Source: a virus
Taxonomy: Duplodnaviria; Heunggongvirae; Uroviricota; Caudoviricetes
Length of the DNA stretch: 64,000 nucleotides
Virus record (IMG/VR): IMGVR_UViG_3300031418_000001
Reading direction: 5' to 3' (one strand)
Shown here: positions 6,464-47,253 of the stretch, in pieces
Layout of the letters: the number at the start of each line of letters is the position of its first letter
How positions within the stretch are numbered: position 1 is the stretch's first letter
Notes under the pieces: model-generated
Seen by the model: only the letters and a program-made list of their open reading frames with translations
What the model was told of the DNA's origin: nothing
Databases searched by the model: none
Translations under genes and position numbers: made by a program

Positions 6464-6821
6464 GAACAGTATAAAACTTTTTAATACATTACAAAGCATC
6501 ATCAATGAAGATGATGTTGTTGAATTTGAGTATGATAATAATAAGATCTACTTTAAAACGGAAACTTATATTATCAGAATTGCTTTAGAAAATTCAACTA
6601 AAGATAGTTCTCTGAGATTCAGAGATTCTTCTTCAGGTTTTGAAGAAAGTCCTATGCTTAAGTTAAAAGAATATGATTCATCTTTCTATTTTAATAATGC
6701 AATCAAGATGAAGATACTTTTATCTAATGATGATGTACAAAAAATAGTTCAAGAATGTCTAAAAATTGACCAAAGAACTTATATTATAATTGAAAGTATC
6801 TGGAGAAAAAATAATGTTTAA
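6414..6821 (+). CDS. hypothetical protein
   Basis: 135-aa ORF; YFNNAIKMKILL family-like motif. Confidence 0.3.
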   Translation: MSIIISQYSVKMMKTYKNSIKLFNTLQSIINEDDVVEFEYDNNKIYFKTETYIIRIALENSTKDSSLRFRDSSSGFEESPMLKLKEYDSSFYFNNAIKMKILLSNDDVQKIVQECLKIDQRTYIIIESIWRKNNV

Positions 6822-7014
6822 AGATAAAATGGTCTTCCAAGATAAAGAAGAACCTCTAAAAAAGCAGGTTCTAAGTGGGGAACATAAAGGTACTATCTTC
6901 ATCCATGATGAAGAATATGCAATTGTAGTTTCCTCTGAAACATTTTCAGAAGATGATACAGTACTGTACAGTACCTTTGAAAATGAAGAACTGGTAGTTC
7001 TACCAATCGAATAA
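6814..7014 (+). CDS. hypothetical small protein
   Basis: ATG at 6814 preceded by GGAGAAAAAATA RBS; followed by a terminator. Confidence 0.35.
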   Translation: MFKDKMVFQDKEEPLKKQVLSGEHKGTIFIHDEEYAIVVSSETFSEDDTVLYSTFENEELVVLPIE

Positions 7015-7018
7015 TATA

Positions 7019-7039
7019 ACCGCCTACTGGCGGTTTTTT
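7019..7039 (+). terminator. rho-independent terminator
   Basis: ACCGCC-tact-GGCGGT followed by TTTTT. Confidence 0.6.
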
Positions 7040-7049
7040 GGATCATACT

Positions 7050-7463
7050 ATGCAACTTTCTGTATTTGAAGATAATATTAATTTAGCAAAACAAATCGCG
7101 GCTATCATGGATTGGGATTTAGGTACTATCAGAATAGAAGTTTGTAATCATGAAATTACTTTTCATCAAACACAAAGAACCTCATCATCCTTTATTGCTA
7201 TTAGTAAAAAGTCCAATATTACTAATAAACTTCTTCGTGTAAAATTATATGATAACTACGAAAACATTGATTTATTCATCTATCGCAAGAAGCCAAATTC
7301 CGAAACTGAATATTGTAAACAATCACCATCAAAAGATAGATTGTTTAACATGAGTTTAGAAAAGGATATTTTAACTAATTACGACCAATTAATTAAAATG
7401 GAAAAGCTAATGGATGATTACAATGATGTTATTCAGATTATTGTTCAATTAAGGAACGTTTAA
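7050..7463 (+). CDS. hypothetical protein, FNxSL family member
   Basis: RLFNMSLEKDILTNYDQL motif; ATG at 7050 (the track start at 7038 is TTG inside the terminator). Confidence 0.35.
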   Translation: MQLSVFEDNINLAKQIAAIMDWDLGTIRIEVCNHEITFHQTQRTSSSFIAISKKSNITNKLLRVKLYDNYENIDLFIYRKKPNSETEYCKQSPSKDRLFNMSLEKDILTNYDQLIKMEKLMDDYNDVIQIIVQLRNV

Positions 7464-7464
7464 A

Positions 7465-7803
7465 GTGACATACGATATTGTTACCGAATGGTATGATACG
7501 ATAATAGAAATTTCAAACATCTTTTTCGCAGAAGGTGGTAGTTCATTACGAATTACAGACAGTACTTTTATTTTGAATAAAGGGTGGGATCAAATAATCA
7601 TCACACCAAACACACCTGAACGTACTATTACTATGTCTAATATTACTGATTTTTTCTATAAAGAAGATAAGATAGAAGATATTGAATCACATGAGTGGTT
7701 TCACTTAACTATACTTCATAAAGTGCCGTATTCTTATGAATGTATTAAGAAATTGAGTACTATTGACAAAAAATTTCATATTTTGATTGGGGTTAATGAT
7801 TGA
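7465..7803 (+). CDS. hypothetical protein
   Basis: 112-aa ORF (GTG start in track); no motif. Confidence 0.3.
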   Translation: MTYDIVTEWYDTIIEISNIFFAEGGSSLRITDSTFILNKGWDQIIITPNTPERTITMSNITDFFYKEDKIEDIESHEWFHLTILHKVPYSYECIKKLSTIDKKFHILIGVND

Positions 7804-8259
7804 ATGAATACTAAACTTCATATTGAATGCTATGAACTTTTACATTCTATTACTGAACAATTTGAAGGAATTAAATTTGAAGCGTTCAATGATTTCGGTA
7901 ACAGTATAAGAGTTAGTTCTGAGAACTTTTTTGGTGAGAATGAAGACGGTTCCATAAGAATGCATTTAGATATTACTATTTTCCCTGGTCATAATAATTT
8001 TGCGGAAAATTATCTTCATGTTGTAAGAACTACATATGTGAATGAATCTCCTTCTGAATTCATGAAGGATTGTATTGATATTCCATGTACTTATATCACT
8101 GATGATTATTATGATAAACGTTCAAAACGACATTCTACGGTTTTACCCAAAGAGACATTTTACAAAATTTCTAAAGTTCTAAAAGATTTTAAACAAAATA
8201 GTGATCATATTAATTTGGTTATTTTTCATTATTATTTCAGTATAACGGTGCAATTATAA
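7804..8259 (+). CDS. hypothetical protein
   Basis: 151-aa ORF, abuts previous stop. Confidence 0.3.
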   Translation: MNTKLHIECYELLHSITEQFEGIKFEAFNDFGNSIRVSSENFFGENEDGSIRMHLDITIFPGHNNFAENYLHVVRTTYVNESPSEFMKDCIDIPCTYITDDYYDKRSKRHSTVLPKETFYKISKVLKDFKQNSDHINLVIFHYYFSITVQL

Positions 8260-8266
8260 GGATTAT

Positions 8267-8734
8267 GTGCTGATGAATTTAAAAGAACAAAAACAATATC
8301 TCAAATTTCTATACAAAGTTATAGATATTTTTGGATTACAAGAAAACCAGGTATGTTGTAGTATTGAAATGGATAAGATTTCATTTATGGCATTTAAAAC
8401 AAAAGAAATGTTGGGTAAAGACCAAACTTTTAAGTTTGAACTTAAGGTTAATACAACTCCTACATTGGCGGTTTTTACCAGAAAAGTACTGGATGATAAA
8501 AAATACGCATGGAGTTCACCAACAAATTATGACAGTTGTGTTTTTAGCTACAGTAATGAATTTGGAATATCATTTCACGATAAAGACAATATATGCTATG
8601 AATTTAACAAAAGCTCCCACTTCAATATGTCGTTAGACAATAATATGTTGATCACATTTAGTCAGTACCGTGATTTATATAATGAATTCAAGAAAATTAA
8701 ATCCAATTACTCCTTGCTAATTTATGGTTATTAA
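8267..8734 (+). CDS. hypothetical protein, FNxSL family member
   Basis: SHFNMSLDNNMLITFSQYRDLYNEFKKIK motif. Confidence 0.35.
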   Translation: MLMNLKEQKQYLKFLYKVIDIFGLQENQVCCSIEMDKISFMAFKTKEMLGKDQTFKFELKVNTTPTLAVFTRKVLDDKKYAWSSPTNYDSCVFSYSNEFGISFHDKDNICYEFNKSSHFNMSLDNNMLITFSQYRDLYNEFKKIKSNYSLLIYGY

Positions 8735-8735
8735 C

Positions 8736-9206
8736 ATGAACTATAATGCTTTAGTAAAAGATGATTTGATTAATGGGGAAGGAGTAAGAGTATCTTTATT
8801 TGTGAGTGGATGTTCTCATGGATGTAAAGGTTGTTTTAATGAAGAAACATGGGACTATCGCTTCGGTAATGAATTTAATGATGAAGTACTCAAGGAATTA
8901 TTCATAGCTTTGAATAAACCTTACATTGATGGACTTACATTGTTAGGTGGCGACCCATTAATGAAGAAAAATATTGAAACGGTACTTCATATTTGTACTA
9001 AATTCAAAGAAGAATTCCCTGATAAAAATATTTGGTGCTGGACAGGATATACACTTCAAGAGGTAATGACAAACCATGCAGAACCAATTCTTGAGTATAT
9101 TGATGTACTGGTTGATGGGAAATTCGTTGAGGAACTTAAGGATCTGACACTCCCATTTCGTGGAAGTTCTAATCAACGTATACTAAGGAAAGGAGTTGAC
9201 TTTTGA
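8736..9206 (+). CDS. nrdG: anaerobic RNR activating protein (radical SAM)
   Basis: CSHGCKGC = CxxxCxxC radical-SAM cluster motif; N-terminus MNYNALVKDDLINGEG aligns with T4 NrdG; 156 aa. Confidence 0.85.
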   Translation: MNYNALVKDDLINGEGVRVSLFVSGCSHGCKGCFNEETWDYRFGNEFNDEVLKELFIALNKPYIDGLTLLGGDPLMKKNIETVLHICTKFKEEFPDKNIWCWTGYTLQEVMTNHAEPILEYIDVLVDGKFVEELKDLTLPFRGSSNQRILRKGVDF

Positions 9207-9556
9207 ACTTAAAAGATATTAAGAAATGTAAATTTGAAATTGAGAAGCGATACTGGATTTTTGTAACGGGGTCAAGAAAGAACCCATCAAGATTCAAACC
9301 CGTTAAATCAAAGATGGGGCCAGCTATATTTGTACTTATAGTAGTGCAACGGAATCAGGAACTAATTATTACAAACGATAGTGTGTCTGTGTATCGTGAC
9401 CGCATAGAAGACCTCTCGATTGGTAAAGAATACACTAAAGAAGACTTTTTCACTAACAGCTTATTGTATAATTTACCTTCACCTGAAGAACTGGTTGAGA
9501 TAAGAAAGTACTTCAAAAAACATCATAAGAACCATCAGGTGACAGTCTATCTTTAA
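9203..9556 (+). CDS. hypothetical protein
   Basis: 117-aa basic ORF overlapping the nrdG stop. Confidence 0.3.
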   Translation: MNLKDIKKCKFEIEKRYWIFVTGSRKNPSRFKPVKSKMGPAIFVLIVVQRNQELIITNDSVSVYRDRIEDLSIGKEYTKEDFFTNSLLYNLPSPEELVEIRKYFKKHHKNHQVTVYL

Positions 9557-9564
9557 GTACTCAA

Positions 9565-9572
9565 AATAAATA
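9565..9572 (+). promoter_or_regulatory. putative late promoter variant AATAAATA
   Basis: AATAAATA 32 nt upstream of the first fibre gene; the same 8-mer precedes lysozyme, sheath, tube and 59069 genes. Confidence 0.35.
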
Positions 9573-9603
9573 CTATATTATTATCTTAGACAAGGATAGT
9601 TAA

Positions 9604-12312
9604 ATGAGTAAAAGAATAATAGCTGATGTTGATATTAAAGGCACCGCCACATCATCATCAAAATACTTAGCACAGAGTGTGCTCGGTAATCAGTTTGATT
9701 CATCTGGTAATCTTGAAATAGATGCTTATACAAATGATGAAATAAACGATATAATCAATGTACTGCCCGTATCACACTATGGCACATATAACTTCCTTCC
9801 TGCTGGCGTTAATGGTTCGTTTGAAGGTGCAAGTGACGTACCTGTATATCGCTACAGAAGAATTCATGTTGAAGATGATGGAACTTTAACCATATTAAGA
9901 CCAGGCTCCAACGGTGCTAAACGTGGACTTTATTATTCTTATCTGAATAATATTTTAAGTACTACTGATTTAAATACTGCTGTTAATACCAATCGTGAAT
10001 ATAAGCCTGGCTATTTTGGAAGTACCTATACCGGTAAAATGTGTTTTGCAAGTGATAACAAAATTGTTTCTGGTATAGCATTAGATTCAAGTAATAACTC
10101 GTACATCTTTACTTCATGGGCTAATGGAACACTTAATGATACGCAACATGTAGGGAGTATCGTACCAGTACTAACATTAATGCCAAATGGTGGTACAGTT
10201 AGATTTGTAATGACAGGGAATACTGAAATTTATTTCTTTGTTGAAGTCAGTCAAGGTAATGAATTAGTATTTGAAGTGCGTTCAATTCCCATTACTCAAA
10301 TAAAAAATTCTTCGAGTACGTTAACTGTTACTGAATATAAAAACTGGACAACTAATACGTTTTATAACCAAAGTATTTCTAATGCTAATATAGTTATGAA
10401 TGAAATGCTGAACAGTACTTCAGTTTCAGATAGACCGTATATGCTGATTCCAGCCAATGCTACAGTCTATCAACCTTATATGACAGGTGTGGATGTATAT
10501 GCAGCACAGAATGCAGCAGGAACCGTTAGAGTGCGTGTGGTAGGGGATGGATGGTGTACTACTCCAGCACGTAATATCCGACCAAAACATAGTTACAGTT
10601 TCGTTTTAAATTTCAGTACTAAAGTTGCAACACTTGAATCTGGAAATGTGGCACCGTTAACAATTACAGACCCAGGATCAGGAACCTCATTAGTGGCAAC
10701 AGGATCAACATTAACAACTGATCCAGTAACAACATTTAATGGCAACCGTGCCAATCAGGTTATTGGATATTATTATTTTGATAATGGAACTACACTGGCA
10801 ATCGCTACCGAAAACTTAGGTTCATATCCAACAAAAATAATTCGTGCGGTTTATCCTAACGCAACAACTGTATATGACACATTACAAGTTCGTTCTCATG
10901 CAAGTACTAACTTTTTATTTGGCTCAATGAATACATCATACGGTTCGCCGGTTGGGTCTGAAGTAATGGCATTTGAATGGTTGCCGAATAACAGATACAG
11001 AGTATCATCATTTGATGGTAATTCAAGATATCGCAATTCATTGAACCAATATAAACCAGGGGCAACTTATACATTCAACTCTGTTGGGTTTGGTACTCTT
11101 AATGGATTTGAACCAACTACTAATCGTAAATTTATTGATGACACTTGGGATAACAGAGTTTTAATTTCGAGTATTAGCGGAACAACGATATCAACTAACG
11201 GTGGGGTATTAATTGAAAGTACAAAATTAAGTACTCCGTTAAGTTATGACCAAGATATGAATAAGTCTGGCTCAATAAGTATAAGTGGTACTTTGTTAAC
11301 TAATTTCAAAAATCAGCAATTATCTAATGCTGCGTTTACAGTTGACCTTGCTAATAAAACAAATATTACTCTGTTTGTCCCACAACAAACTGATTGTCCG
11401 GTCTTTGCATTGATTTCAGGTTGTACACCGTCTTTAACTAATTATTATAAAGTGGTAGAAGTCAACGTTAATACAAGAACAGATGCAATAAGTACCTTAA
11501 CCTTCAAGCGGTTAGTTGCTGAAGGAACTGGAACATTTGGTGCATTGAGATCAGATGCTACGTATGGCCCAGGCACCACATCTGTTGGTATTACAATATA
11601 TGATGCAGGTTCATTCTATTTCATTGGTGGAGTTGACCCGTACATTTATGCAACTCAGGGTGACAGCAATGGAATTACTTGGAGAGCTAAAGTAACTAAA
11701 AGTACTCAGCAAATGGATGACTTCACTGTAAGTGGTACTTACCAGAATCACACTTCAGGAAATTCACAAATGCCGTGGGCCGTTCCTGGAATTGGTTTCG
11801 GTTATCTTGATTTTGCTGCACAAGCATCTGATGACCGAGTAAGAATTACATTTCAGCCAGTAGGAACTACTTTAGCAGAATATACTTCATGGGCTGATAA
11901 TGGAAATAAATTAGTACTGGCATCACAGGATGTTGCTCAAGGGTTTATTATCTATTTTACTGAAGAAACTCCAGTTATATTATCAGGTAAGTCATTCACC
12001 ATGCCAATTACAAACATTGACTTAACAACAGTAAAAGCTAACCCAGCTAATGCTACGTTCCATGTTTATGTACAAATGGTTGAAGGTCTTGCACAGTATA
12101 AAATAACTGAAGAAGTAATTGCTGAAACTGGAACATCGGCTTATAACCTGTTATGGATTGGAACTATTACGACAAATTCACTTCAGATTAGTTCTATTAA
12201 TATTCAGAAGCGTAGTCGCCTTGATGTATTTGGCCCATCAATACAACCTGCTGGTTCTTCATTCCCTGTTAGTTCTGGTTTACCTTCTGGTAATGGTTCA
12301 ATTCAATGGTAA
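9604..12312 (+). CDS. tail fibre / receptor-binding protein paralogue 1
   Basis: 902 aa, Ser/Thr/Asn/Gly-rich; shares N-terminal (VLPVSHYG, EDDGTL..LRPGSNG) and C-terminal (FxxPITxIDLxTVKANPxN...PxSxGxPSGxG) blocks with the next two genes, variable middle. Confidence 0.5.
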   Translation: MSKRIIADVDIKGTATSSSKYLAQSVLGNQFDSSGNLEIDAYTNDEINDIINVLPVSHYGTYNFLPAGVNGSFEGASDVPVYRYRRIHVEDDGTLTILRPGSNGAKRGLYYSYLNNILSTTDLNTAVNTNREYKPGYFGSTYTGKMCFASDNKIVSGIALDSSNNSYIFTSWANGTLNDTQHVGSIVPVLTLMPNGGTVRFVMTGNTEIYFFVEVSQGNELVFEVRSIPITQIKNSSSTLTVTEYKNWTTNTFYNQSISNANIVMNEMLNSTSVSDRPYMLIPANATVYQPYMTGVDVYAAQNAAGTVRVRVVGDGWCTTPARNIRPKHSYSFVLNFSTKVATLESGNVAPLTITDPGSGTSLVATGSTLTTDPVTTFNGNRANQVIGYYYFDNGTTLAIATENLGSYPTKIIRAVYPNATTVYDTLQVRSHASTNFLFGSMNTSYGSPVGSEVMAFEWLPNNRYRVSSFDGNSRYRNSLNQYKPGATYTFNSVGFGTLNGFEPTTNRKFIDDTWDNRVLISSISGTTISTNGGVLIESTKLSTPLSYDQDMNKSGSISISGTLLTNFKNQQLSNAAFTVDLANKTNITLFVPQQTDCPVFALISGCTPSLTNYYKVVEVNVNTRTDAISTLTFKRLVAEGTGTFGALRSDATYGPGTTSVGITIYDAGSFYFIGGVDPYIYATQGDSNGITWRAKVTKSTQQMDDFTVSGTYQNHTSGNSQMPWAVPGIGFGYLDFAAQASDDRVRITFQPVGTTLAEYTSWADNGNKLVLASQDVAQGFIIYFTEETPVILSGKSFTMPITNIDLTTVKANPANATFHVYVQMVEGLAQYKITEEVIAETGTSAYNLLWIGTITTNSLQISSINIQKRSRLDVFGPSIQPAGSSFPVSSGLPSGNGSIQW

Positions 12313-12325
12313 AAAGGAATTTACT

Positions 12326-15067
12326 ATGACTTATAAAGTTATTGGTGATTTAGAAGTCGCCGGAAAAATTAACGTTAATGGTAAGGTTAGTGGCGTATCC
12401 GTCACCCTTACCGATCATGACGAAGTTTATACAGCGGATACTAATGGTCATGTTGATCTTCCAGTACCGCAAAAAAATGAATTTGATTATATTTTAAAAC
12501 AATTACCACTTACTCAGTATGGGGCAGTTAATAACGTACCAGTAGGTGTTGCTGGTACGTTTGATGGTGGTAGTACTATACCATATTATGCAGCAATGCC
12601 AGTACTGTTAGAAGATGACGGAACGTTAGCATTTCTTCGCCCAGGTTCAAACGGTAGTACTATCAATTATTATTACACTTACGTTACGAGTCCAGAGTCA
12701 AGTACTAAACCGACAACTACAATTAGAAAGTACTATAATGGTACTGGTAAGAATATTCTATTTTATGATTCATATACCAAAGATACTTTGATATATCAAG
12801 ATATTGATAATGCTTTATTTTATGTGGTACTAACAAATGGCACCCTTGATAATTCTAAACATCAACAGGCTTCATTTGACCGAACTTTGATTCCATACAA
12901 CATAATGTCTGCACTAAAAGTTGGAAATTACGTTTATATAATCTCATTATATAACAGTGCTTATAATGTAAGTAATCCAGTATCTATCAGTTATAATATC
13001 AACGACCCGTTTCAGTTCATGATGCATCGAATTCCTGTATCACAAATTCAAGCTGGTAATATTACCACAGTTGAAGCTGTTACCGGTATTACTGGAAATA
13101 ATATGTTTGGTGATGCAAATACTTCAGGTAATATAAGAATTGCAGATTCATGGGCCAGTACTTCAGATACTGCGACTAAATCTTTCATCAAATATCCAGT
13201 AGGAACAAATGTTTCTCCCTATACATATTCAATTGTCAGTGCTGGGAAATCATATTTTGATGGAACAAATATTATTTTTTCATTCTTTACAAATGGATAT
13301 GTTGTTAACAGTACAGCACGTATAGATACTATGTATGGATTAACTGTAACATATAATGTGAATAATAAAACTTTCAGTACTGATTTGTCACCAACTTCAA
13401 TGGTATGTAATGGTGGAACCACTGGAGCAGTAACGTGGAATAATCCATATGCAATCAATACTTCAAAAACTTACGGTGTTGGAACTGGTATTGCTGATGG
13501 TAATTCTAATACATGGTGCATAACTGATGGTGGAGTTCAATATGCCATTAAAGAAAAATATGTTTTGTCTGATACATATTTGGTATCAAGATGTATTATC
13601 ACTAATTTTACCACTAAAGCTGAAGCATACAAAGTAAGAAATAGAGTACTGTCCCCAACATCAAGTACTAATGCTTCTGCCGATTTTGCGTCAAGAGTTG
13701 GTGATCAGTTGGTTGGTGGTTCCCCTATTTCAAGTACTCGAATAATGTTTACCGGAACAGGTACATATGAAGGTACTGCGTATACCAAATATTTTCGAGG
13801 TATTGCTGATATTGGGACAACCCGAAACTATACTTATAACTCTATTGATCGTGGAACTATAACAGGATATGCACCACAACCATTCCGAGTTCCATTTGGT
13901 AGTGAGAATTTGATGCGTTCAAAACTTTCATTCTGTGATGCGTCAGGTAATGTTGAATCTTATGGATGTGCATTTTTAGAAAACGTTATTTTAACTACAG
14001 GGTATAAACTATCTGCAAGTTCTTTAACGTATGATAAAACTATTAATATATCTAACAGTACATTAGTTAGTCTAAAAAATTCAATTCTTGCAAATGCTGG
14101 TATTACCTCTCCGGCTGATTCAAAAATAGGATTATATTATTCTCCAAAATCTGATTACTGTAAAAGTATTGCACATGTTGTGGTATATAATGGTACAAAC
14201 TTAGGTGGACGGAATATATTTGCAACAGTTGATTGTACCTTAACCGGAACCACCGTTAGTGCGGCAACGTTAAGTACTGTATTCTATAATCAATCTGTTG
14301 AGAGAATGCAGGGAATTACAGCAAACCCAACCGAAGTGTTTGCTAAATCTGGATTATCATGCGTGAAATACTCAGACTTTACTTATATTGCATTCAGTGG
14401 TTTGTTTGTTTATGGAACACCTGGAGATAGTGAAGAAGTAACAGGATGTGGTATTGTAAGTGGTAATACCGTAAATTCAGTGATTGTTTCAAACAGCTAT
14501 CATGCAACTGGATTACCCGGAGCAGAGCCGAGACGTGAATATAGTTATATTCCTAACCTTGGATTTGGATATTACATATATTCACCAACCGATAAGGGTA
14601 CTAAGCTAATATTCAAAAATTGTGGCAATACCTCTGCACAATTTACTTCCAATATGTCTAACGGAACAGGTACTGATGTTGTAATTTTAGCACAGGATGT
14701 TGTTGTAGGTTTTTATCTGTATTTTACAGAGAGAACTCCATTATTCATGAGTGGTCAGTACTTTGAACTTCCTATTACAACTATTGATTTGAATACGGTT
14801 AAAGCAAATCCAGGAAATACTAAATTTTATGTTTATGCAAAACTTGAGTATGGACTTCCTATATATAAAGTAAGTGAAACCGAATTAGTTGAGAATGAAA
14901 CTACTATGTTCATTGGAACTATTCAGACTGATGGAACAAAGGTTAGTGACTTAAATATAACAAAGGTTTCTAAATTTGATAATTACAGACCATCTGCCAG
15001 CACTATTGGAGGTGCATTCCCTGTAAGTACTGGAAACTCAATGGATTCAGGAACTATCAACTGGTAA
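12326..15067 (+). CDS. tail fibre / receptor-binding protein paralogue 2
   Basis: ATG at 12326 after AAAGGAA RBS (upstream extension in track is an overlapping-frame artefact); conserved termini as above. Confidence 0.5.
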   Translation: MTYKVIGDLEVAGKINVNGKVSGVSVTLTDHDEVYTADTNGHVDLPVPQKNEFDYILKQLPLTQYGAVNNVPVGVAGTFDGGSTIPYYAAMPVLLEDDGTLAFLRPGSNGSTINYYYTYVTSPESSTKPTTTIRKYYNGTGKNILFYDSYTKDTLIYQDIDNALFYVVLTNGTLDNSKHQQASFDRTLIPYNIMSALKVGNYVYIISLYNSAYNVSNPVSISYNINDPFQFMMHRIPVSQIQAGNITTVEAVTGITGNNMFGDANTSGNIRIADSWASTSDTATKSFIKYPVGTNVSPYTYSIVSAGKSYFDGTNIIFSFFTNGYVVNSTARIDTMYGLTVTYNVNNKTFSTDLSPTSMVCNGGTTGAVTWNNPYAINTSKTYGVGTGIADGNSNTWCITDGGVQYAIKEKYVLSDTYLVSRCIITNFTTKAEAYKVRNRVLSPTSSTNASADFASRVGDQLVGGSPISSTRIMFTGTGTYEGTAYTKYFRGIADIGTTRNYTYNSIDRGTITGYAPQPFRVPFGSENLMRSKLSFCDASGNVESYGCAFLENVILTTGYKLSASSLTYDKTINISNSTLVSLKNSILANAGITSPADSKIGLYYSPKSDYCKSIAHVVVYNGTNLGGRNIFATVDCTLTGTTVSAATLSTVFYNQSVERMQGITANPTEVFAKSGLSCVKYSDFTYIAFSGLFVYGTPGDSEEVTGCGIVSGNTVNSVIVSNSYHATGLPGAEPRREYSYIPNLGFGYYIYSPTDKGTKLIFKNCGNTSAQFTSNMSNGTGTDVVILAQDVVVGFYLYFTERTPLFMSGQYFELPITTIDLNTVKANPGNTKFYVYAKLEYGLPIYKVSETELVENETTMFIGTIQTDGTKVSDLNITKVSKFDNYRPSASTIGGAFPVSTGNSMDSGTINW

Positions 15068-15079
15068 AAGGATTTAGCA

Positions 15080-17818
15080 ATGTCTAAAAAAATAATCGGA
15101 AATGTTAGCGTTTCACGAAACACTACATCAATGGGTGAGAATACTATTCGTGATGTTAATGGTGTTTCTCCTGATAGCACTGGTAACATTAATTATCAGT
15201 ACTATACAAAAGAGTATGTTGACCAGGTAATTAAGGTACTTCCTGTTTCTCGTGTTGGTAGTATGGATTATCTCCCTATGAACATTAATGGTTCATATGA
15301 GGGTGCAACAACATATTTTGATAAAAGAGTTTTGCCTGTAATAGTTGAAGATGATGGTACACTTGTGTACCTTCGTCCTGGTACAAATGGAAGTACTAAT
15401 GGTTATTACTTTAGTTACACCGCAAATTCAAGAACTGTTAGTACTTTAACTCCAGTGCTTACAAATGAGAAATACGTTCCATCATTTTTCACGGTGAACC
15501 ATTCACTTATTTCTTTTGTTGGTTCTAAAGCCAATGAGCTTTTATTCATGAAAACGAATAATGGAACTAATGATACCTATACAATTGCTTTAACAAATGG
15601 TACACTTAATAGTGTATCACATCAATATCTTGAATTTAACCGCACCTTAATTCCAAATACAGATCCGCAATATGCTCATATTGTTGGAAGTTTAGTATAT
15701 ATTTGGTGTATTGATTCATATGATGCAAGTAATGCACTTGACATATCATTGTATACCATTTCATTAGATGATATTCGTTCTGGTAGTAGTACATCATTAC
15801 AGAGAATTACAGGAATAAGTGGGAAAACTATTTCTGGTGCAACAGTAGCTTCATCAAGCACCGTAAGACTTGCACAGAAATATGTAAGTACTGTTGCATC
15901 TGATAATCCACTATTATTAACTGATTCAGCAACGACAGTTTTACCGTTTGTTCTTAATAATGATGGTGTTATACAAGCTGTAGTTAATGATGCAAATACA
16001 TCAGTAAGAGTTGCAGTGTTTCATCCTTTTGGTGCACTTAATGCTCAAAGTAATTCACAGCAGAAAATGTGGGGTTTAAGTTTTACGTACAATATTAGTA
16101 CTAAAGCCTATGTACTTGACCAAGCAGCCGGTTCAATAAGTATATCTACATCTAATAATCAGATTGTAATTAATGACCCTTATAATGTTACAATGGAAAA
16201 TATAAATGGATATGTAACCGGAAGTCAGGGTAATGTTCCTACTATTTTCCAAACTGCTGATGGTTTAGTTTTCAGTACTGTTGCACGTTATATTACTTCG
16301 CCTCAACATAAAATAACACGTTCTACTTTAAGTACATTTACAAACTTATATGATTCGTGGAATTTGAGTACAAGAAAATTAACTAAGGTTTCGTCTACAT
16401 TAGTAGATCCAATTTATGGTTCTACCATTGGAGAAAATCTTATAAGTCCTACGGTATTATCACCTACAAAAGTACTATTCAACTGTAGTGGTACATCTAA
16501 TGGAAATACATTTGGATTTGATTCTAAGGTTTATACCGATATTGGAAGCACTCGAAACTATTCATATAAGTCAGTAGTCACAGGTTCAACTATTAACGGT
16601 TATGCACCACAGAAGAACCGAAATTTAGTTGACAATACAAATAACAGACTTAATGGATTAATTACGTTAATTGCAGCAGATGGAAGTACTACAGTTTATG
16701 GTTCATCTTTTATAGAAGGAACAACAAAACCTGCTAATGGTTTAATGGATATTAACACCTTCAATTTCGGTGCACCTTATACTTTATCAAGTACGTCATT
16801 ATTGAGTACTCTTAAAGACTCCATTATAAATTCAGTATCATTTACTGGAAATGTTATAGAAAGTAAAATAGTATTGTACTATGTACCTAATAGCACATTT
16901 GGTAAGAGTATTGCTTCTGTCACATTAAGAACGGATACGAAAGATTCATCAGGATATATAGGTCATGTCATTGTAAGTACTGTTGATGTTGTGGTTAATG
17001 CTAATGTTATATCTGGACTTACAGCAGTTAATAGTATCATAAATGGTGTTTCAACAGATGCAATTTCTATTAATACTACATACTTAAGTCGTATGCCAGG
17101 ATTAACAATTGCAAAGTATCAAGGTTTCTCATATATAGGAATACCCGCTATTTTTAATATAGGTATACCAGCAAATGCGACATTCAGAACGACAATAGGA
17201 AAACTTGATTCAAATAATAATATTACAGCAATTAAGGTAATATCCTCAGATTACGTAAGTGCAGCGGGAGGTACTTATGAAGCTGGAGTTATGCCTGGTT
17301 ATGGTTTTGGATTGTTCATGAACGGTGATCTTACTGATTTTCAGACAAAATTAGTCTTTGGTAATTTTGGTACTACATCAGCACAGCTTGATTCACTGAT
17401 AGCAGGAAACCTGACTCCACTTGAAACGGTGGTAGTTGCCTCACAAGAAGTACCACAAGGTTTTAACGTGTACTTTACACAGGAAGTTCCTGTTTTGATA
17501 AACGGTGCCTACTATAAGTTACAGCCAACTGATGTTGATTTAACTACGATTGATTCGTCGCCAGCTAACAAAACCTTTTACATTTATGTTTATGTTGTAG
17601 AAAATATTTGCAAGTACGTGATAAGTACTTCTAAGTTAACGGAAGAACTAAACCGTATCTTTATTGGTACAATCGTAACAGGTTCTAATAATATTACTTC
17701 AATTGAATCAGAAAAAGTAACAAGGTTCTTAACGTATCGTGTAAGTACGACTAAACGTGGTTCAGCAATTCCTGCAAGTACTGGAGTACCATCAGGTACT
17801 GGAACCCGCTGGAATTAA
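15080..17818 (+). CDS. tail fibre / receptor-binding protein paralogue 3
   Basis: 912 aa; same conserved N- and C-terminal blocks. Confidence 0.5.
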   Translation: MSKKIIGNVSVSRNTTSMGENTIRDVNGVSPDSTGNINYQYYTKEYVDQVIKVLPVSRVGSMDYLPMNINGSYEGATTYFDKRVLPVIVEDDGTLVYLRPGTNGSTNGYYFSYTANSRTVSTLTPVLTNEKYVPSFFTVNHSLISFVGSKANELLFMKTNNGTNDTYTIALTNGTLNSVSHQYLEFNRTLIPNTDPQYAHIVGSLVYIWCIDSYDASNALDISLYTISLDDIRSGSSTSLQRITGISGKTISGATVASSSTVRLAQKYVSTVASDNPLLLTDSATTVLPFVLNNDGVIQAVVNDANTSVRVAVFHPFGALNAQSNSQQKMWGLSFTYNISTKAYVLDQAAGSISISTSNNQIVINDPYNVTMENINGYVTGSQGNVPTIFQTADGLVFSTVARYITSPQHKITRSTLSTFTNLYDSWNLSTRKLTKVSSTLVDPIYGSTIGENLISPTVLSPTKVLFNCSGTSNGNTFGFDSKVYTDIGSTRNYSYKSVVTGSTINGYAPQKNRNLVDNTNNRLNGLITLIAADGSTTVYGSSFIEGTTKPANGLMDINTFNFGAPYTLSSTSLLSTLKDSIINSVSFTGNVIESKIVLYYVPNSTFGKSIASVTLRTDTKDSSGYIGHVIVSTVDVVVNANVISGLTAVNSIINGVSTDAISINTTYLSRMPGLTIAKYQGFSYIGIPAIFNIGIPANATFRTTIGKLDSNNNITAIKVISSDYVSAAGGTYEAGVMPGYGFGLFMNGDLTDFQTKLVFGNFGTTSAQLDSLIAGNLTPLETVVVASQEVPQGFNVYFTQEVPVLINGAYYKLQPTDVDLTTIDSSPANKTFYIYVYVVENICKYVISTSKLTEELNRIFIGTIVTGSNNITSIESEKVTRFLTYRVSTTKRGSAIPASTGVPSGTGTRWN

Positions 17819-17825
17819 TATATCA

Positions 17826-17866
17826 AAAGCAGGGTTTAATGAGTAATCATTTTCCCTGCTTTTTTC
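17826..17866 (+). terminator. rho-independent terminator
   Basis: AAAGCAGGG...CCCTGCTTT long hairpin followed by T-run. Confidence 0.55.
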
Positions 17867-17946
17867 ATTTTAATTGCTTTTTGGTGTTGACGGGATAATT
17901 CTTTTCCTGTAGTCTAATTGAAAATCAAACAAAATGGATTAACAAA

Positions 17947-18684
17947 ATGCAACTCGGTGATCGTGTAAAGCAACTGTACGAGAAAACAGAAACGTCTCAG
18001 AAATTCCTTCCTTTGCTGCCAATCTATTGCCGCATCGACGGACGATCCTTTAGCAAATTCACTAAAGGAATGACAAAGCCATATGAAGAACGTATGAGCC
18101 ATGTTATGCAGGAAGTTACTAAATTTCTTGTTAAAGAAACTTCTGCTCGTGTTGGATATACTCAATCTGACGAAATTTCACTACTTTTTTATGTAGATGA
18201 TATTCGTTCTTCTATCTTCTTTGATGGTAAAAAACAGAAGATGGTTAGTATTCTTGCTGCGGCTGCGAGTGCAAAATTCATGCAAGTTGCAAGTACTGAA
18301 ATTCCTGAATTTGTACAGGATAAAGTACCAATGTTTGATGCTCGTGTTTTCAACGTACCGAACAAAACTGAAGCGATGAACTGCTTCCTGTGGCGTGTAC
18401 AGGATGCTGTAAAGAACAGTATTTCTATGGCTGCACGTAGTGTGTTTTCACACCGTGAAGTAAATAACAAAAACCAAAGCCAGATGCTTGATATGCTCAT
18501 GGAAAAGGGTATCAACTGGAACGACTATCCTAAGTACTTTAAAGAAGGTTCATTCTTCCAGCGTATTCAGTACGAAAAAGTTCCTGGGGTTATTCGTTCA
18601 CGTATTGATGAAATCCTTGTTGGTACTAAATTTGAAGATCTTAGTACTGAAGAACGTATTAAAGTACTTTTTGGAGAGAACTAA
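17947..18684 (+). CDS. Thg1-like protein (tRNA-His guanylyltransferase family 3'-5' nucleotidyltransferase)
   Basis: N-terminal RIDGRSFSKFTK matches the Thg1 VRIDG+xFxxF signature and SDEIS(LLF) matches the GESDEYSF catalytic carboxylate motif; 245 aa is typical length. Confidence 0.8.
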   Translation: MQLGDRVKQLYEKTETSQKFLPLLPIYCRIDGRSFSKFTKGMTKPYEERMSHVMQEVTKFLVKETSARVGYTQSDEISLLFYVDDIRSSIFFDGKKQKMVSILAAAASAKFMQVASTEIPEFVQDKVPMFDARVFNVPNKTEAMNCFLWRVQDAVKNSISMAARSVFSHREVNNKNQSQMLDMLMEKGINWNDYPKYFKEGSFFQRIQYEKVPGVIRSRIDEILVGTKFEDLSTEERIKVLFGEN

Positions 18685-18698
18685 TATCAGGAGGGTAC

Positions 18699-19034
18699 AT
18701 GGAAGTACCTGTAGTAGTTAACAAATATAAATCTGAGTATGATGTTTATATTGGTAGGGGTTCTAAATGGGGAAACCCATTTACTCATATTAAAGACAGA
18801 AATACTAAAGCTGAGTACATTGTAAGTACCAGAGAAGAATCAATTGAACGATTCAGAGAGTACATATATCATAAGATACAAACTGGTGAAATTAGTGTTG
18901 AAGAACTTTATGAACTTCAAGGTAAGAGGTTAGGGTGTTTCTGTAAGCCTAAGTCGTGTCATGGTGATATATTAGTTGAAATTATACAAGCCATTATAGA
19001 AATGAGCGAAGAAAATGAAAAATATAGTACGTGA
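18699..19034 (+). CDS. DUF4326-family protein
   Basis: DVYIGRGSKWGNPF ... LQGKRLGCFCKPKSCHGDIL matches the DUF4326 hallmark (YIGR..WGNPF; CxC.P..CHgd); 111 aa. Confidence 0.7.
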   Translation: MEVPVVVNKYKSEYDVYIGRGSKWGNPFTHIKDRNTKAEYIVSTREESIERFREYIYHKIQTGEISVEELYELQGKRLGCFCKPKSCHGDILVEIIQAIIEMSEENEKYST

Positions 19035-19851
19035 AGCATCTGATATTGAAAAAGATTATATTACAAATTCACTATCTGACGTAAACATTAATGTTGAAAA
19101 AGTCATTATACATAGTGTTACTGAAAGTCCAACAGGTACTGAATATTCAGTAGAAGTTCATCACGATGAACAATGTACTATTTTTGTTGGTGATAAAAAC
19201 AAAATCAATGGAATGATGCTTAAACAAAATGCTCACACTCCAGAAGAAATTCATCAAATAATAACTAAAGCTGCATTGGATTGTGAATTGTTACATAAGT
19301 ACTCTCTTAATATAGTTCCATTTATTGTAACTTGCGGAGAGTTGACTTTTTCAGTTCGTAACAATATATTAAGTTTAATGAAAACTGTTAATAATCAAAA
19401 TAAAGATTATTACTTGAAAACAACACAATCACTTCTTTTTACTGGTATGTTTGTCGTTGAAATTAATTCAGGTTCTAATCATGTGAAACTTGATCGTATC
19501 TATGATAAGTCAATTCGACTTACTCATGATAGCACACAATTTAGTTATAGCGGAAGTAATAGTAAAAATATTGATATTAATTATTTTGAAAATCCAGATG
19601 ATTACTTTGCATTAAGTACTGTAAATCCAATTTCAAAGGAATCATTTTTGCAACTTTGTGATTTATATAAAGTACTAAACAGTATTAAATACACAGAATA
19701 CAAGATCAAATTTAGTGATGATAATAGATCGAAATTATCGAATAAGTCATTATTCCGAAAATCATTTAAAGAATATATGAAATTTGATTTAGAAAAACAA
19801 ATTCTTGATGAAATAGAGAGAGAATATGCTGATTATATCAAAGTACCATGA
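19015..19851 (+). CDS. hypothetical protein
   Basis: 278-aa ORF, no motif recognised. Confidence 0.3.
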   Translation: MKNIVREASDIEKDYITNSLSDVNINVEKVIIHSVTESPTGTEYSVEVHHDEQCTIFVGDKNKINGMMLKQNAHTPEEIHQIITKAALDCELLHKYSLNIVPFIVTCGELTFSVRNNILSLMKTVNNQNKDYYLKTTQSLLFTGMFVVEINSGSNHVKLDRIYDKSIRLTHDSTQFSYSGSNSKNIDINYFENPDDYFALSTVNPISKESFLQLCDLYKVLNSIKYTEYKIKFSDDNRSKLSNKSLFRKSFKEYMKFDLEKQILDEIEREYADYIKVP

Positions 19852-20527
19852 TTATTACGATCACGTGCAACAAGCTGGTGTAGATAAGCGAGTTGTTTTG
19901 CACCGTGAAATGAAAGAAATTGATGTACCAAATGGTCTGAAGTTCAGTAACATGCAGCTTGCCAGTATTGATGAGCGTGGCAACCGTGTTGCATCTTACA
20001 ACTTTATTTCAGGCAGAGTGTTCCGGTTGGAGTGGTTATTCTTCTGTGGTAAAGCGTACCCTAAGATTTTCTCCTTTGACAAAGAATACAATAGTGATGT
20101 TTTCCATAACATCAAGTTCTATAGTACCTTGGAAGAAGCAGAACAAGACATTCCACCATCAGCACATTACTTTAATAGTAAGAACTGGAATACAGGAATG
20201 ATCCTGGCTCATCAGGTACGTGAAATTCTGTCAATGCCACGTGAAATTGATGCTAATGTATTTCAAAAACTAAAAGCACCGTATTTCGTATACAAAAGAC
20301 GTGATTCATCGGTTCGCTATGGTGATAAGGGTAAAGTAATAACTTTTCCAGTACTTAAGGATTATACCCCATTCCTTAACTTGGATGCTTATAGTACGTA
20401 TCAGGAAATTGAAATGTACTGTTCCGGTGTAATGGGCGTAGGTGAACCGGAAATAATTGAAGTGTCCGATATTTCAAAACGAGATAGTAAAGGTTTTGAT
20501 AAATTTAGCTTCAAACACAGAAAATAA
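19826..20527 (+). CDS. hypothetical protein
   Basis: 233-aa ORF with ATG start, overlaps upstream gene by 26 nt. Confidence 0.3.
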   Translation: MLIISKYHDYYDHVQQAGVDKRVVLHREMKEIDVPNGLKFSNMQLASIDERGNRVASYNFISGRVFRLEWLFFCGKAYPKIFSFDKEYNSDVFHNIKFYSTLEEAEQDIPPSAHYFNSKNWNTGMILAHQVREILSMPREIDANVFQKLKAPYFVYKRRDSSVRYGDKGKVITFPVLKDYTPFLNLDAYSTYQEIEMYCSGVMGVGEPEIIEVSDISKRDSKGFDKFSFKHRK

Positions 20528-20531
20528 TCAT

Positions 20532-20556
20532 AAGGAACCTTTTGGTTCCTTTTTTC
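20532..20556 (+). terminator. rho-independent terminator
   Basis: AAGGAACC-tttt-GGTTCCTT followed by TTTTC. Confidence 0.6.
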
Positions 20557-20574
20557 ATTTACAACGAGGTTTTT

Positions 20575-21045
20575 ATGACTGGTTTTTTGCAATACGTATT
20601 AGATATTTCTGAATCATTAAGAACAAATATCCTTAGTGATAAAATCAAATCATCAGGTTATGATTTTCGAATTTGTGAAAAAGATGAAGATGATAACAGC
20701 TCAATTCGTACCGTTTATATTACCAGTACTGGTTATGGTATTGCAACTAATCTTGCATCTAAAGATGATGTACCTGAAGACTTTGTTGTAACTCTTAAGT
20801 ACTACAATAATTCTTATGATGAACATGATATGTTTTTTATTATCAATTCATCTGGAATTGCGTTTCACTTCAGAGGTGAAGTATATGAAGATATTCAAAA
20901 AGATGAGTACTTTAATTTAACCATGTGTTTTTCTAATAAGATGATCAGCTTTGACGAGATTAAAGGAATTCATAATAACTTGGACAAACTTGTAGGATTT
21001 ACATTATATTATGCACAGGACGAAGAAAAACAATACGGCTATTAA
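20575..21045 (+). CDS. hypothetical protein, tandem paralogue A (C-terminal EEKxYGY)
   Basis: ATG 20575 after GAGGTTTTT; ends DEEKQYGY; shares N-terminal FLxxVLDIS and FNLTM motifs with the next two ORFs. Confidence 0.4.
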   Translation: MTGFLQYVLDISESLRTNILSDKIKSSGYDFRICEKDEDDNSSIRTVYITSTGYGIATNLASKDDVPEDFVVTLKYYNNSYDEHDMFFIINSSGIAFHFRGEVYEDIQKDEYFNLTMCFSNKMISFDEIKGIHNNLDKLVGFTLYYAQDEEKQYGY

Positions 21046-21496
21046 TAATTTTTTTAATGATGTGTTTAATTCCATTCTTAAAAAGGAAATTGTAGGAAAT
21101 CTAAAGAAAACGGATTTTATAATTTACCGTGATTTATGTATTGAAAATGATGAATACCATTTACTTGAATGTAGTAAATCAAGAGAAAGGAAAAGTTTAA
21201 AATTATTCTTTAGTACTTGGGTGAATCCAACTGTAGGTTATGAATCCTATGACCATTTTATTGAAATTTTCGAGAATGGTGAATTCAGGTTCTATAAGGA
21301 TGAAGATTCCGAAGAGTATGAAATTATTTCAATGCAAGAAGATATTTTCAATATAGCAATACAATATGAAATGTATATGTCTATGGAAGAACTGCAATTA
21401 CTAAAAAGACTTTTTAAAAAGGTCGTTAAGAAAAGAGATTTAACCACATTACGTTTTTACTATGGCAAGGGTGAGGAAAAAATGTATGGGTACTAA
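21011..21496 (+). CDS. hypothetical protein, tandem paralogue B (C-terminal EEKxYGY)
   Basis: ends GEEKMYGY; start uncertain (ATG 21011 overlaps paralogue A by 35 nt; GTG 21062 alternative). Confidence 0.35.
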   Translation: MHRTKKNNTAINNFFNDVFNSILKKEIVGNLKKTDFIIYRDLCIENDEYHLLECSKSRERKSLKLFFSTWVNPTVGYESYDHFIEIFENGEFRFYKDEDSEEYEIISMQEDIFNIAIQYEMYMSMEELQLLKRLFKKVVKKRDLTTLRFYYGKGEEKMYGY

Positions 21497-21941
21497 ACAG
21501 TTTCTATTGGATTTGGTTCAAAGTTATATTGATAATAAGATTCCAAAACCATTAGTTAAATATGCGTCGTTTGACAAAGGTGTTGATACTATTAGTATTG
21601 GTATTGATAATTACTATACATCAAAAGCATCTTATAAACCTGGCGAAAAAACATTAAATATAGAGTTTTTTAATGGTTACTTAGCATCTGATAAAGAAAA
21701 TTATTACATTTCTATGACTAAAAAAGATATTTTAATTATTGACGATGATGAAGGTACTTTTATAGTTGACTGTAATAACAGTGATATGATTTTTAACATT
21801 TCATTGAAATATAATTTTCCTCTTACACTTCAAGACTTAATAGAAATTCATAATAAATTTGTAGAATTGATTGATACCCAAGAGATTACTAAACTCGAAA
21901 TTTTTTACACAGCAGAAGAAGAAAAGAAATATGGATACTAA
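21486..21941 (+). CDS. hypothetical protein, tandem paralogue C (C-terminal EEKxYGY)
   Basis: ATG 21486 lies inside the TATGGGTACTAA encoding YGY* of paralogue B, with GAGGAAAAA (=EEK) as RBS; ends EEEKKYGY. Confidence 0.4.
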   Translation: MGTKQFLLDLVQSYIDNKIPKPLVKYASFDKGVDTISIGIDNYYTSKASYKPGEKTLNIEFFNGYLASDKENYYISMTKKDILIIDDDEGTFIVDCNNSDMIFNISLKYNFPLTLQDLIEIHNKFVELIDTQEITKLEIFYTAEEEKKYGY

Positions 21942-23271
21942 ACAACAAATTCAAACTAAACCAGAAGTTGAAAAGCAAATTGTAAAACACTTTGCTGGTT
22001 CAATTTCTTACGGTACAAATACGGCTGCATCTGACACAGATTATCGTGGAATTTTTCTTGCACCTAAAGAATATATCATGACACCATTCTGGAATGTTCG
22101 TGAAGTTAAAGATGAAAAAGAAGAAGATACTAAATTCTTCGAACTCAATAACTATATGGAACTTTATTTAGATGCTAACCCTAATGTAATTGAAACTCTT
22201 TGGGTACGTGATGAAGATATTGTACAACGTACTGAAGAATATGATGTACTTCGTCAGTACGCACAACAGCTACTGAGTACTAAACTTGCATTCACATATA
22301 CCGGATATGCACATAATCAAGCAACCAGAATGAAAAATCATCATGGATGGATGGATAAGGAACGTACAGGAATTCGTATTCTTCAGGAATATATTGATGA
22401 AATTTCATGTGAGCAGATCAAAGAATGGGTTAAAGATACATTTCCTGAATACGTATACAACTTAATTGATTTCTCAAAATGTAATGGAAGATACCTTAAA
22501 GGAATGCTGAAAACAGAGAAATATATGCGTAACACTTCTCTGCAAATGCTTAGTTCTCTCCCATTAGCACAATATCACTTTATTAAATTAGTACATAACT
22601 ATTTTCAACATCAGGTACTGGATCGTGATTTCAGCATCATGGATTATAATGATGGATATGAACTTCTTCCTTATGGTGAAAATATCTTTGCTGTAGTTAA
22701 GAAAGAGGGTGGTAAATGTATTAATTCTGATGGAAGTATCCATAAGGTTGATACCAGTAATCGAACTCTTGAAGAAATCAAACAACAGCCTTGTATGATC
22801 GTTAAATTCAACAAGGATGAGTACTTAAAAAGTTCTGATAACCGGAAGAATTATCATTCATGGAAACAGAATCGCAACGAAGCTCGTTCTGAACTTGAGC
22901 AGAAAAACGGATACGACACAAAACATGCAATGCATGTAGTTCGACTGTTACGTACCGCACAGGAAGCTCTGGAGACAGGTCATATCAATGTATATCGCCC
23001 TGATGCACAGGAACTGCTTGCTATTCGCAACGGTTCATGGACGTATGATGAAATGATGGAGTACTGGAAAGATATGGATAATAAGATCCGTCATCTTTAC
23101 TATCCAAAATCGGAGCTACCTAAGAAACCAGACGTTAAACTGGCGACTAAAGTACTTCTCGATATTCGTGAAATTCAGTTCTATAGTACTAAAACTGAAA
23201 GTTATGAAAGTTCTAAAATTTCTACACCTACTGCAACGATTACTGAAAAATTCAGAAATTGGTTTAAGTAA
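21931..23271 (+). CDS. Pol-beta superfamily nucleotidyltransferase, RlaP-like (RNA-ligase-associated NTase family)
   Basis: GSISYGTNTAASDTDYRGIFLAP matches the GS..YG.....SDxD.RGV..P N-terminal signature of RlaP/MNT-type Pol-beta NTases; ATG 21931 again embedded in YGY* of the upstream gene. Confidence 0.5.
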   Translation: MDTKQQIQTKPEVEKQIVKHFAGSISYGTNTAASDTDYRGIFLAPKEYIMTPFWNVREVKDEKEEDTKFFELNNYMELYLDANPNVIETLWVRDEDIVQRTEEYDVLRQYAQQLLSTKLAFTYTGYAHNQATRMKNHHGWMDKERTGIRILQEYIDEISCEQIKEWVKDTFPEYVYNLIDFSKCNGRYLKGMLKTEKYMRNTSLQMLSSLPLAQYHFIKLVHNYFQHQVLDRDFSIMDYNDGYELLPYGENIFAVVKKEGGKCINSDGSIHKVDTSNRTLEEIKQQPCMIVKFNKDEYLKSSDNRKNYHSWKQNRNEARSELEQKNGYDTKHAMHVVRLLRTAQEALETGHINVYRPDAQELLAIRNGSWTYDEMMEYWKDMDNKIRHLYYPKSELPKKPDVKLATKVLLDIREIQFYSTKTESYESSKISTPTATITEKFRNWFK

Positions 23272-23444: not shown

Positions 23445-23458
23445 ATACTATATCCTAA

Positions 23459-23487
23459 AAGCCTGGACTCTATGTTCAGGCTTTTTT
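23459..23487 (+). terminator. rho-independent terminator
   Basis: AAGCCTGGAC-tctat-GTTCAGGCTT followed by TTTTTT. Confidence 0.6.
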
Positions 23488-45898: not shown

Positions 45899-46043
45899 TT
45901 ACAGTACTTGAAGAAGATTGGGGAGTAAGTGAGCAAGGTACAGGTGAATATGTATTTCCTGAAAGTACTAAAGAAGAATCATGGTATGATAAATTGAAAG
46001 AATTTATTGGACGAATCCTTTTTGGAAAAAGAGAGACAAAATG
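45894..46043 (+). CDS. hypothetical small protein (49 aa, not in ORF track)
   Basis: ATGA overlaps on both sides (45894 and 46041). Confidence 0.25.
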
Positions 46044-47221: not shown

Positions 47222-47253
47222 ATAAGTATCTGACAAATCTATGGAATTGTATC

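Follow-up and report, generated by a model that had tools for sequence, protein, structure and literature searches.

A stretch of 64,000 nucleotides from a tailed virus of the class Caudoviricetes (IMG/VR record IMGVR_UViG_3300031418_000001, hereafter the window) carries a gene for a Thg1-like protein (TLP, positions 17947-18684) followed directly by a gene for a DUF4326 protein (18699-19034). The locus raises the question of what a phage would do with a 3'-5' polymerase and whether the two neighbours form a functional pair. The evidence presented here makes it rather likely that the TLP is intact and mends tRNA 5' ends as a stand-alone accessory gene, and that its adjacency to DUF4326 is lineage-specific synteny. 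The gene kind itself is known: Thg1 was noted in the caudovirus 201phi2-1 in 2010 (PMC2904730), TLPs are already annotated in phages GAP32 and CBB (PMC5259590) and in PHROGs, and Iyer et al. (2021) gave the Thg1 of jumbo phage groups 2-3 the role of replacing nucleotides at tRNA 5' ends, together with RlaP, a CCA-adding enzyme and RNA ligases (PMC7824862).

Identity and active site of the TLP

The TLP open reading frame (ORF), on the + strand, starts with ATG, stops with TAA at 18682-18684 and codes for 245 amino acids (aa). It matches the Pfam family Thg1 (PF04446) with E=2.7e-29 and 102.2 bits (cutoff 29.2) over profile positions 7-130 of 130, and PHROG 4717, named 'tRNA-His guanylyltransferase', with E=2.1e-85; both these assignments and those of the DUF4326 ORF given below are far above chance level. 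The best match among all PDB sequences is the TLP of Bacillus thuringiensis (BtTLP, 4KGK; E=6.3e-37, 130.5 bits), with residues 3-219 of the phage protein aligning to 4-216 of 4KGK, whereas the eukaryotic Thg1s (24-41 bits) and one archaeal TLP stay within 24-45 bits.

The motifs RIDGRSFSKF and SDEIS lie at residues 29-38 and 74-78, the sites expected for Thg1 hallmarks, as the original prediction had claimed when it described the gene, from its letters alone, as a Thg1-like 3'-5' polymerase. An alignment of 30 homologs (50-88% identity) has E12, R29, D31, S74, D75, E76, K98, R133, R150, N157 and M161 as invariant columns. In the BtTLP structure D30 and D75 bind metal and E76 is the third carboxylate (equivalent to D29, D76 and E77 of human THG1, hTHG1), and Met158 is specific to TLPs, the equivalent site in eukaryotic Thg1 being an Asn used for ATP-specific activation (PMC3701042). 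The three carboxylates correspond to D31, D75 and E76 of the phage protein, all present and invariant in the 30 homologs; BtTLP E12, R28, S74, R131 and R147 correspond to E12, R29, S74, R133 and R150; Met158 corresponds to M161; and K98 is the invariant Lys equivalent to hTHG1 K95. Family profiles and catalytic carboxylates thus agree with the predicted polymerase assignment.

Both the phage protein and BtTLP read 'KNSISM' where eukaryotic Thg1 chains have 'thinnl' or 'chinnl'. Because all the functional residues of BtTLP are invariant and KNSISM stands in place of the H-I-N-N-L block, the protein is classed by its sequence as a bacterial-type TLP and not a eukaryotic Thg1, and its intact catalytic and nucleotide-binding residues suggest an apparently active enzyme. 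With BtTLP (4KGK/4KGM) it shares the length of 245 aa, identical catalytic carboxylates and nucleoside triphosphate-binding residues, and the TLP-specific Met of the activation site; the two differ in that BtTLP is a bacterial gene whereas this one is viral and known from sequence, in a moderate sequence divergence and in some 25 C-terminal residues that cannot be aligned. With eukaryotic Thg1 (human 3OTB, Candida albicans 3WBZ) it shares the superfamily and the catalytic triad, but lacks the H-I-N-N-L block and the ATP-activation Asn.

Proposed function of the phage TLP

BtTLP is the best available model for the function of the phage enzyme, and the analogy guides the mechanism proposed here. 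BtTLP favours 5'-truncated tRNAs 5-160-fold over full-length tRNA-His, also acts on tRNA-Phe, and adds nucleotides under Watson-Crick templating with no requirement for tRNA-His; preference for 5'-truncated tRNAs and templated addition are known for both BtTLP and MaTLP (PMC3061083). The phage TLP is likewise expected to be template-dependent, unlike Thg1, with its non-templated G addition. By homology, it would activate the 5'-monophosphate of a tRNA with ATP or GTP and then, with the 3' strand of the acceptor stem serving as Watson-Crick template, add the missing nucleotide or nucleotides 3'-to-5' by two-metal catalysis on D31 and D75, with E76 supporting R29. Its likeliest task would be to mend tRNAs of the host or the phage that have lost 5' nucleotides, among them a tRNA-His lacking G-1 opposite C73, and it would do so as a stand-alone accessory gene, part of a dispersed RNA-maintenance toolkit (RlaP, the CCA-adding enzyme, an Rnl5-type ligase and a PRTase/TROVE/2H cluster, described below).

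Conservation of the TLP-DUF4326 arrangement

The DUF4326 gene starts after a 14-nt spacer (18685-18698) that contains an AGGAGG Shine-Dalgarno sequence at 18689-18694, and its product matches Pfam DUF4326 (PF14216) with E=6.7e-25 and 88 bits (cutoff 25) and phrog_464 with E=3.5e-43. The original prediction of a DUF4326 gene 14 nt behind the TLP is therefore correct, down to the motifs quoted there, YIGRGSKWGNPF (residues 17-28) and CFCKPKSCHGD (residues 80-90). The order TLP, DUF4326, RlaP is found in six of six genomes of the lineage (the window, XaC1, GAP32, CBB, XbC2 and fHe-Yen9-04), with RlaP 2.4-3.6 kb downstream of the TLP in every one, and XaC1 gp211, GAP32_147, CBB_152, fHe-Yen9-04 g142 and XbC2_144 occupy the same slot, after tail-fibre genes and before DUF4326 and RlaP. 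Across these genomes the gap between TLP and DUF4326 ranges from 4 to 750 nt with 0-2 genes in between: the two are directly adjacent only in the window and XbC2, which sets this pair of loci apart from other Rak2/GAP32-like 'tRNA-His guanylyltransferase' genes, and 1-2 unrelated genes separate them in GAP32, CBB, fHe-Yen9-04 and XaC1. Mimasvirus members also have a DNA methyltransferase downstream, in place of which the window has other ORFs.

Linkage beyond this lineage was surveyed in 86 TLP-anchored and 80 DUF4326-anchored IMG/VR loci (+-10 kb), which were found by profile search, a single-sequence search having given just 8 loci. DUF4326 occurs within 10 kb in 3 of the 86 diverse TLP loci (at -9.2, -8.0 and -2.3 kb, none adjacent), and a TLP within 10 kb in none of the 80 DUF4326 loci. 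Around 70 non-redundant phage TLPs no Pfam family appears in more than 2 of 140 flanking proteins, and the Pfam census of DUF4326 flanks returns clamp-loader AAA+ ATPases, NrdD/NrdG, DNA methylase and 5'-3' exonuclease, with no RNA-repair genes. A single-sequence phmmer search of limited sensitivity gave no difference in the presence of RlaP between TLP loci (6 of 86) and control loci (4 of 80).

Escherichia phage 121Q, whose nrdD-to-RlaP region is collinear with the window except for DUF4326 (nrdD 70%, nrdG 67%, fibre genes 40-44% and RlaP 55% identical), adds a second line of evidence. Its DUF4326 ortholog gp497 is 73% identical to the window protein and is flanked by nrdD and nrdG (8175-10763 of the 121Q locus, compared with 4138-9206 of the window), and a TLP is missing from the region, so that in 121Q and its relatives DUF4326 sits inside the anaerobic ribonucleotide reductase pair, whereas in the window it sits beside the TLP. 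Between nrdD (4138-5949, +; PF13597, E=2e-163) and nrdG (8724-9206, +; PF13353, E=1e-53) the window has six small ORFs without assignment, at the place where phages of the 121Q/RaK2 type have DUF4326. This suggests a local translocation of the small DUF4326 gene, as well as a recurrent association of DUF4326 with ribonucleotide reductase. Moreover, the window DUF4326 matches its 121Q counterpart (E~1e-55) better than it matches GAP32-type copies (~1e-29), while RlaP has the reverse pattern, so the DUF4326 gene has a history separate from that of its neighbours.

Functional pairing of TLP and DUF4326 is thus not supported, since the arrangement recurs solely in a Mimasvirus/Eneladusvirus-like lineage. 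The link implied by the original prediction, for which a neighbourhood survey had been proposed, fails on the counts of 3/86 and 0/80, the displaced 121Q ortholog and the lack of shared flanking families; recurrence of the linkage holds within one phage lineage (6/6 genomes) and not in unrelated genomes.

tRNA genes are present within 10 kb in 27 of the 86 TLP loci and 28 of the 80 DUF4326 loci. Since tRNA frequencies are much alike around both anchors (32% and 29%), this proximity probably reflects accessory regions in large phages. When de-duplicated loci were compared with random ORFs of the same loci, DUF4326 showed a modest excess, 14 of 58 non-redundant loci having a tRNA gene less than 3 kb away (p=0.007; for 1 kb p=0.056), which may come simply from clustering in accessory regions. 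In a viral contig of 152 kb ARAGORN also called an amber-suppressor-like tRNA ('tRNA-Pyl', 9778-9851 of the locus) whose anticodon is CUA; it lies some 120 nt ahead of a TLP gene, and the contig could come from a phage that recodes stop codons.

The DUF4326 protein

The DUF4326 gene (18699-19034, +) codes for a stand-alone single domain of 111 aa. R20, C80, C82, C87 and H88 are 100% conserved in an alignment of 150 diverse representatives (56 close homologs were also aligned), giving a core R...C-x-C-x4-C-H. An AlphaFold (AF2) model built with the 56 homologs as input has a pLDDT of 93.9 and predicts a small alpha/beta domain in which a strand (77-80) leads into the Cys/His loop and then into a helix (88-109). 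The Cys/His pattern would suit metal binding no less well than catalysis by one cysteine. A clade RapZ-C/DUF488/DUF4326 with a Rossmannoid fold and an active-site Cys loop between strand and helix was reportedly described by Burroughs and Aravind in 2023. In half of the close DUF4326 homologs Pfam DUF488-N3a is matched below threshold. A published analysis (PMC9503650) places DUF4326 in a rhodanese-phosphatase clade whose predicted action is on terminal, ribose-linked phosphates of ADP-ribose derivatives. The DUF488-N3a matches would agree with that placement, of which no structural confirmation was obtained: Foldseek of the model against the PDB gave nothing below E=2, a profile search of PDB sequences gave no match, and an hhalign comparison of the DUF4326 profile with an E. 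coli YeaO sequence, a putative DUF488 example, gave a probability of 0.3%, which is uninformative.

DUF4326 is far more common than the TLP (reference phage records with DUF4326 number 2,196, those with a TLP 162; DUF4326 also has 18,245 representatives at 50% identity in a large protein library). Its known fusion partners are SLOG (DUF2493/YpsA), NADAR/PTP and RNase H, never Thg1, and some DUF4326 proteins have 2-4 tandem copies of the domain. It is an enzyme-like viral domain of its own, very widespread, whose substrate is probably a nucleotide or a phospho-ribose, and the repeated association with ribonucleotide reductase (nrdD/nrdG, 'NrdA.1'-type names) points toward nucleotide metabolism. 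DUF4326 proteins are often mislabelled 'NrdA' or 'ribonucleotide reductase NrdA-like' (XbC2_145 and GAP32_149 in GenBank, PHROG 24867); these labels look like descendants of the T4-like gene name 'NrdA.1' and not the product of similarity to the reductase.

Alternative explanations

Several observations weigh against tRNA 5'-end repair by a stand-alone TLP. No experimental study of any phage TLP was found in the literature; the 64-kb window has no tRNA gene; and TLP genes are no nearer to tRNA genes than random ORFs of their loci are (p=0.35-0.56, de-duplicated). We know of no nuclease with which bacteria shorten tRNAs at the 5' end, the damage to be repaired being thus hypothetical. Finally, the TLP-DUF4326 order is kept in all six lineage genomes over gaps of 4-750 nt, with a good Shine-Dalgarno sequence in the window, and a lineage-specific cooperation of the two proteins may be conceived from it. 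That they act jointly on RNA 5' ends, a phosphatase-like DUF4326 preparing or tidying the end (for example by trimming a 5'-triphosphate), is nevertheless quite improbable. Such joint action would account for the common order and the direct adjacency in the window and XbC2, and would suit the short spacer with its strong Shine-Dalgarno sequence and no terminator between the genes, the published rhodanese-phosphatase assignment with its predicted processing of ribose-linked terminal phosphates (PMC9503650), and the modestly closer position of DUF4326 to tRNA genes. It is contradicted by the near absence of either gene from the loci of the other, by the 121Q/RaK2 ortholog, which nrdD and nrdG flank and which has no TLP beside it, by the unrelated genes intervening in four of the six genomes, by the discordant history of the DUF4326 gene and by fusions that never involve Thg1. 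A further version, in which DUF4326 is a processor of RNA or tRNA ends (for example a metal- or Cys-dependent phosphohydrolase for 5' or 2'/3' ribose phosphates) that was recruited beside the TLP in the Mimasvirus-like lineage to make a two-step 5'-end repair, is highly doubtful; were it true, that role would have left a wider trace in the modestly raised number of DUF4326 genes next to tRNA arrays of phages.

Other substrates for the TLP have to be weighed as well. As its GenBank name implies, the enzyme could be dedicated to tRNA-His, adding or restoring G-1 on a phage- or host-encoded tRNA-His: BtTLP is efficient at G-1 addition opposite C73 (kcat/KM 5500 M-1 s-1; PMC3061083), C73 is present in five of five phage tRNA-His genes within 10 kb of a TLP, and the CBB genome paper ties the CBB TLP to the tRNA-His of the phage (PMC5259590). 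The same five genes, however, all encode G-1 genomically, as in bacteria, and therefore G-1 addition is possible but not obligatory; moreover, tRNA-His makes up just 5 of 207 tRNAs near phage TLPs and is not over-represented, the window protein shows Met161, as is typical of TLPs, and not the motif of eukaryotic Thg1, and BtTLP favours truncated tRNAs regardless of identity (PMC3061083), all of which makes dedication to tRNA-His unlikely. Editing of tRNA 5' ends in the mitochondrial style was considered and rejected: acceptor pairs 1-3 are mismatched in 11 of 199 tRNAs from TLP loci and 15 of 215 from control loci (p=0.69), most mismatches being the normal C1:A72 of initiator tRNAs, and therefore there is no sign of a need for such editing. 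Some Dictyostelium TLPs act on RNAs other than tRNA, and a non-tRNA substrate (other 5' ends of phage or host RNA, or the synthesis of a small nucleotide product) would be in keeping with the lack of a tRNA gene in the window and of a preference of TLPs for tRNA neighbours, as well as with the homology of the Thg1 palm domain to GGDEF and Cas10 polymerase domains (PMC2904730). Yet the nearest characterised homolog (E=6e-37) repairs tRNA, all the residues that it uses are conserved and there is no sequence sign of altered specificity, which leaves a substrate outside tRNA rather improbable.

Phage lineage and probable operon layout

No close nucleotide match of the window was found in the reference phage collection. 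A metagenomic contig of 349,332 bp encodes the exact DUF4326 protein, and four independent metagenome assemblies, this contig included, repeat the gene order of the window; the phage is a jumbo phage of roughly 349 kb and of the Rak2/GAP32-like type. The TLP is 57-67% identical to genes of XaC1, fHe-Yen9-03/04, CBB, BF, the pEa_SNUABM phages, GAP32 and XbC2. The CBB TLP is shared with GAP32, whereas Rak2 shares just the other two tRNA-related genes and has no TLP (PMC5259590).

Upstream of the TLP, three tandem tail-fibre-like paralogs of about 900 aa (9604-17818, +) are 29-44% identical to two 121Q proteins and have counterparts in relatives that are annotated as structural or as minor tail proteins; the TTG start at 12119 of the middle one is probably too far upstream, the assemblies calling a 913-aa product. 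A hairpin with a U-tract resembling an intrinsic terminator (17825-17871, +; -18.5 kcal/mol, z=-4.1, with 0 of 200 shuffles as good) ends this block and is directly followed by UUUUUUCAUUUU. Downstream of DUF4326, an ORF of 278 aa (19015-19851, +) has no Pfam or PHROG match, although four assemblies include it in their gene calls; it overlaps the end of DUF4326, stop codon included, by 20 nt and is probably in one operon with it. The next ORF (19826-20527, +, 233 aa) matches phrog_4243 (E=2.3e-21) and has a homolog in Xanthomonas phage XaC1 (E=2e-73), where it also lies next to DUF4326; no relative of it was found in the PDB. After a terminator-like hairpin at 20532-20551, detected by the terminator scan, come three tandem paralogous ORFs (20542-21941, +; 167, 161 and 159 aa) that are 21-23% identical, share an invariant C-terminal EEKxYGY and gave no family match; one assembly variant carries a fourth copy, and a comparable series of small ORFs is present in XaC1. 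The RlaP-family (RNA ligase-associated Pol-beta) nucleotidyltransferase gene follows at 21871-23271 (+; PF10127, E=5.9e-14; phrog_388, E=8e-76), and the scan placed a further terminator-like hairpin at 23457-23485. From these three hairpins we infer two units, one with the TLP as first gene, DUF4326 and the two ORFs, and another with the three paralogs and RlaP. A scan for sigma-70 promoters returned 29 sites where 33 are expected by chance, and no promoter is claimed.

RNA-repair genes elsewhere in the window

The original prediction had combined the TLP with a CCA enzyme for the 3' end and a ligase for the anticodon loop, so that the phage could mend all three classic sites of tRNA damage. 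A class II CCA-adding tRNA nucleotidyltransferase is present at 46041-47162 (+; PF01743, the PolyA_pol head, E=2.6e-20; PF12627), and the NCBIfam model for CCA addition and repair scores 315 bits (E=6e-94) against 98 bits (4e-28) for PcnB. An ATP-dependent RNA ligase is also there, at 37688-38953 (+; PF21189, E=8e-35; PF09414, E=1e-17), but it has an N-terminal OB domain before the nucleotidyltransferase (RNA_ligase with the PHA02142 OB) and matches the DRB0094 equivalog TIGR02306 above its cutoff (E=2e-82), so that it is of the DRB0094/Rnl5 type and not the anticodon-loop type of T4 Rnl1. With such a ligase, no polynucleotide kinase (PNK) domain among the roughly 50 window ORFs scanned (some small ORFs being left unscanned) and no tRNA gene in the window, the claim about all three sites is overstated. 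Compared with the Pnk and Rnl1 proteins of T4, the window shares a phage-encoded response to tRNA damage, with a ligase and a 2H phosphoesterase, but differs in the type of ligase, in the lack of PNK in the scanned ORFs and in a TLP that would target the 5' end of the acceptor stem and not the anticodon loop.

The earlier annotation did not mention a putative RNA-repair-type cluster at 40506-43666 (+), which Pfam resolves into three neighbours, namely a ComF-like phosphoribosyltransferase (PRTase; PF15610, E=8e-51), a DUF2828/DUF7788 protein (TROVE/vWA-like; PF25043, E=4e-41, and PF11443, E=2.5e-30) and a phosphoesterase domain of the 2H 'Swiss Army Knife' kind (PF22547, E=5.7e-7). A wider tRNA/RNA-repair toolkit is plausible, and the idea is already published (PMC7824862). 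A ribosome hibernation factor homolog (45218-45649, +; Ribosomal_S30AE, E=5e-22), a NUDIX hydrolase (47212-47688, +) and a YqeY-like protein (47917-48360, +) flank the CCA-adding enzyme as a translation-related accessory block. Two adjacent 135-aa paralogs (36864-37678, +) with sub-threshold similarity to DUF2500 lie directly upstream of the ligase, and a Band-7 protein is also encoded in the window.

Significance

The analysis is mostly corrective: the TLP-DUF4326 module is removed, the ligase is taken out of the anticodon-loop type, and the gene is fitted to the published jumbo-phage framework. For the biology of these phages, an intact viral TLP implies that damage to tRNA 5' ends, or loss of G-1, occurs in infection, and the cultivable relatives CBB and GAP32 are tractable systems in which to find the damaging agent.

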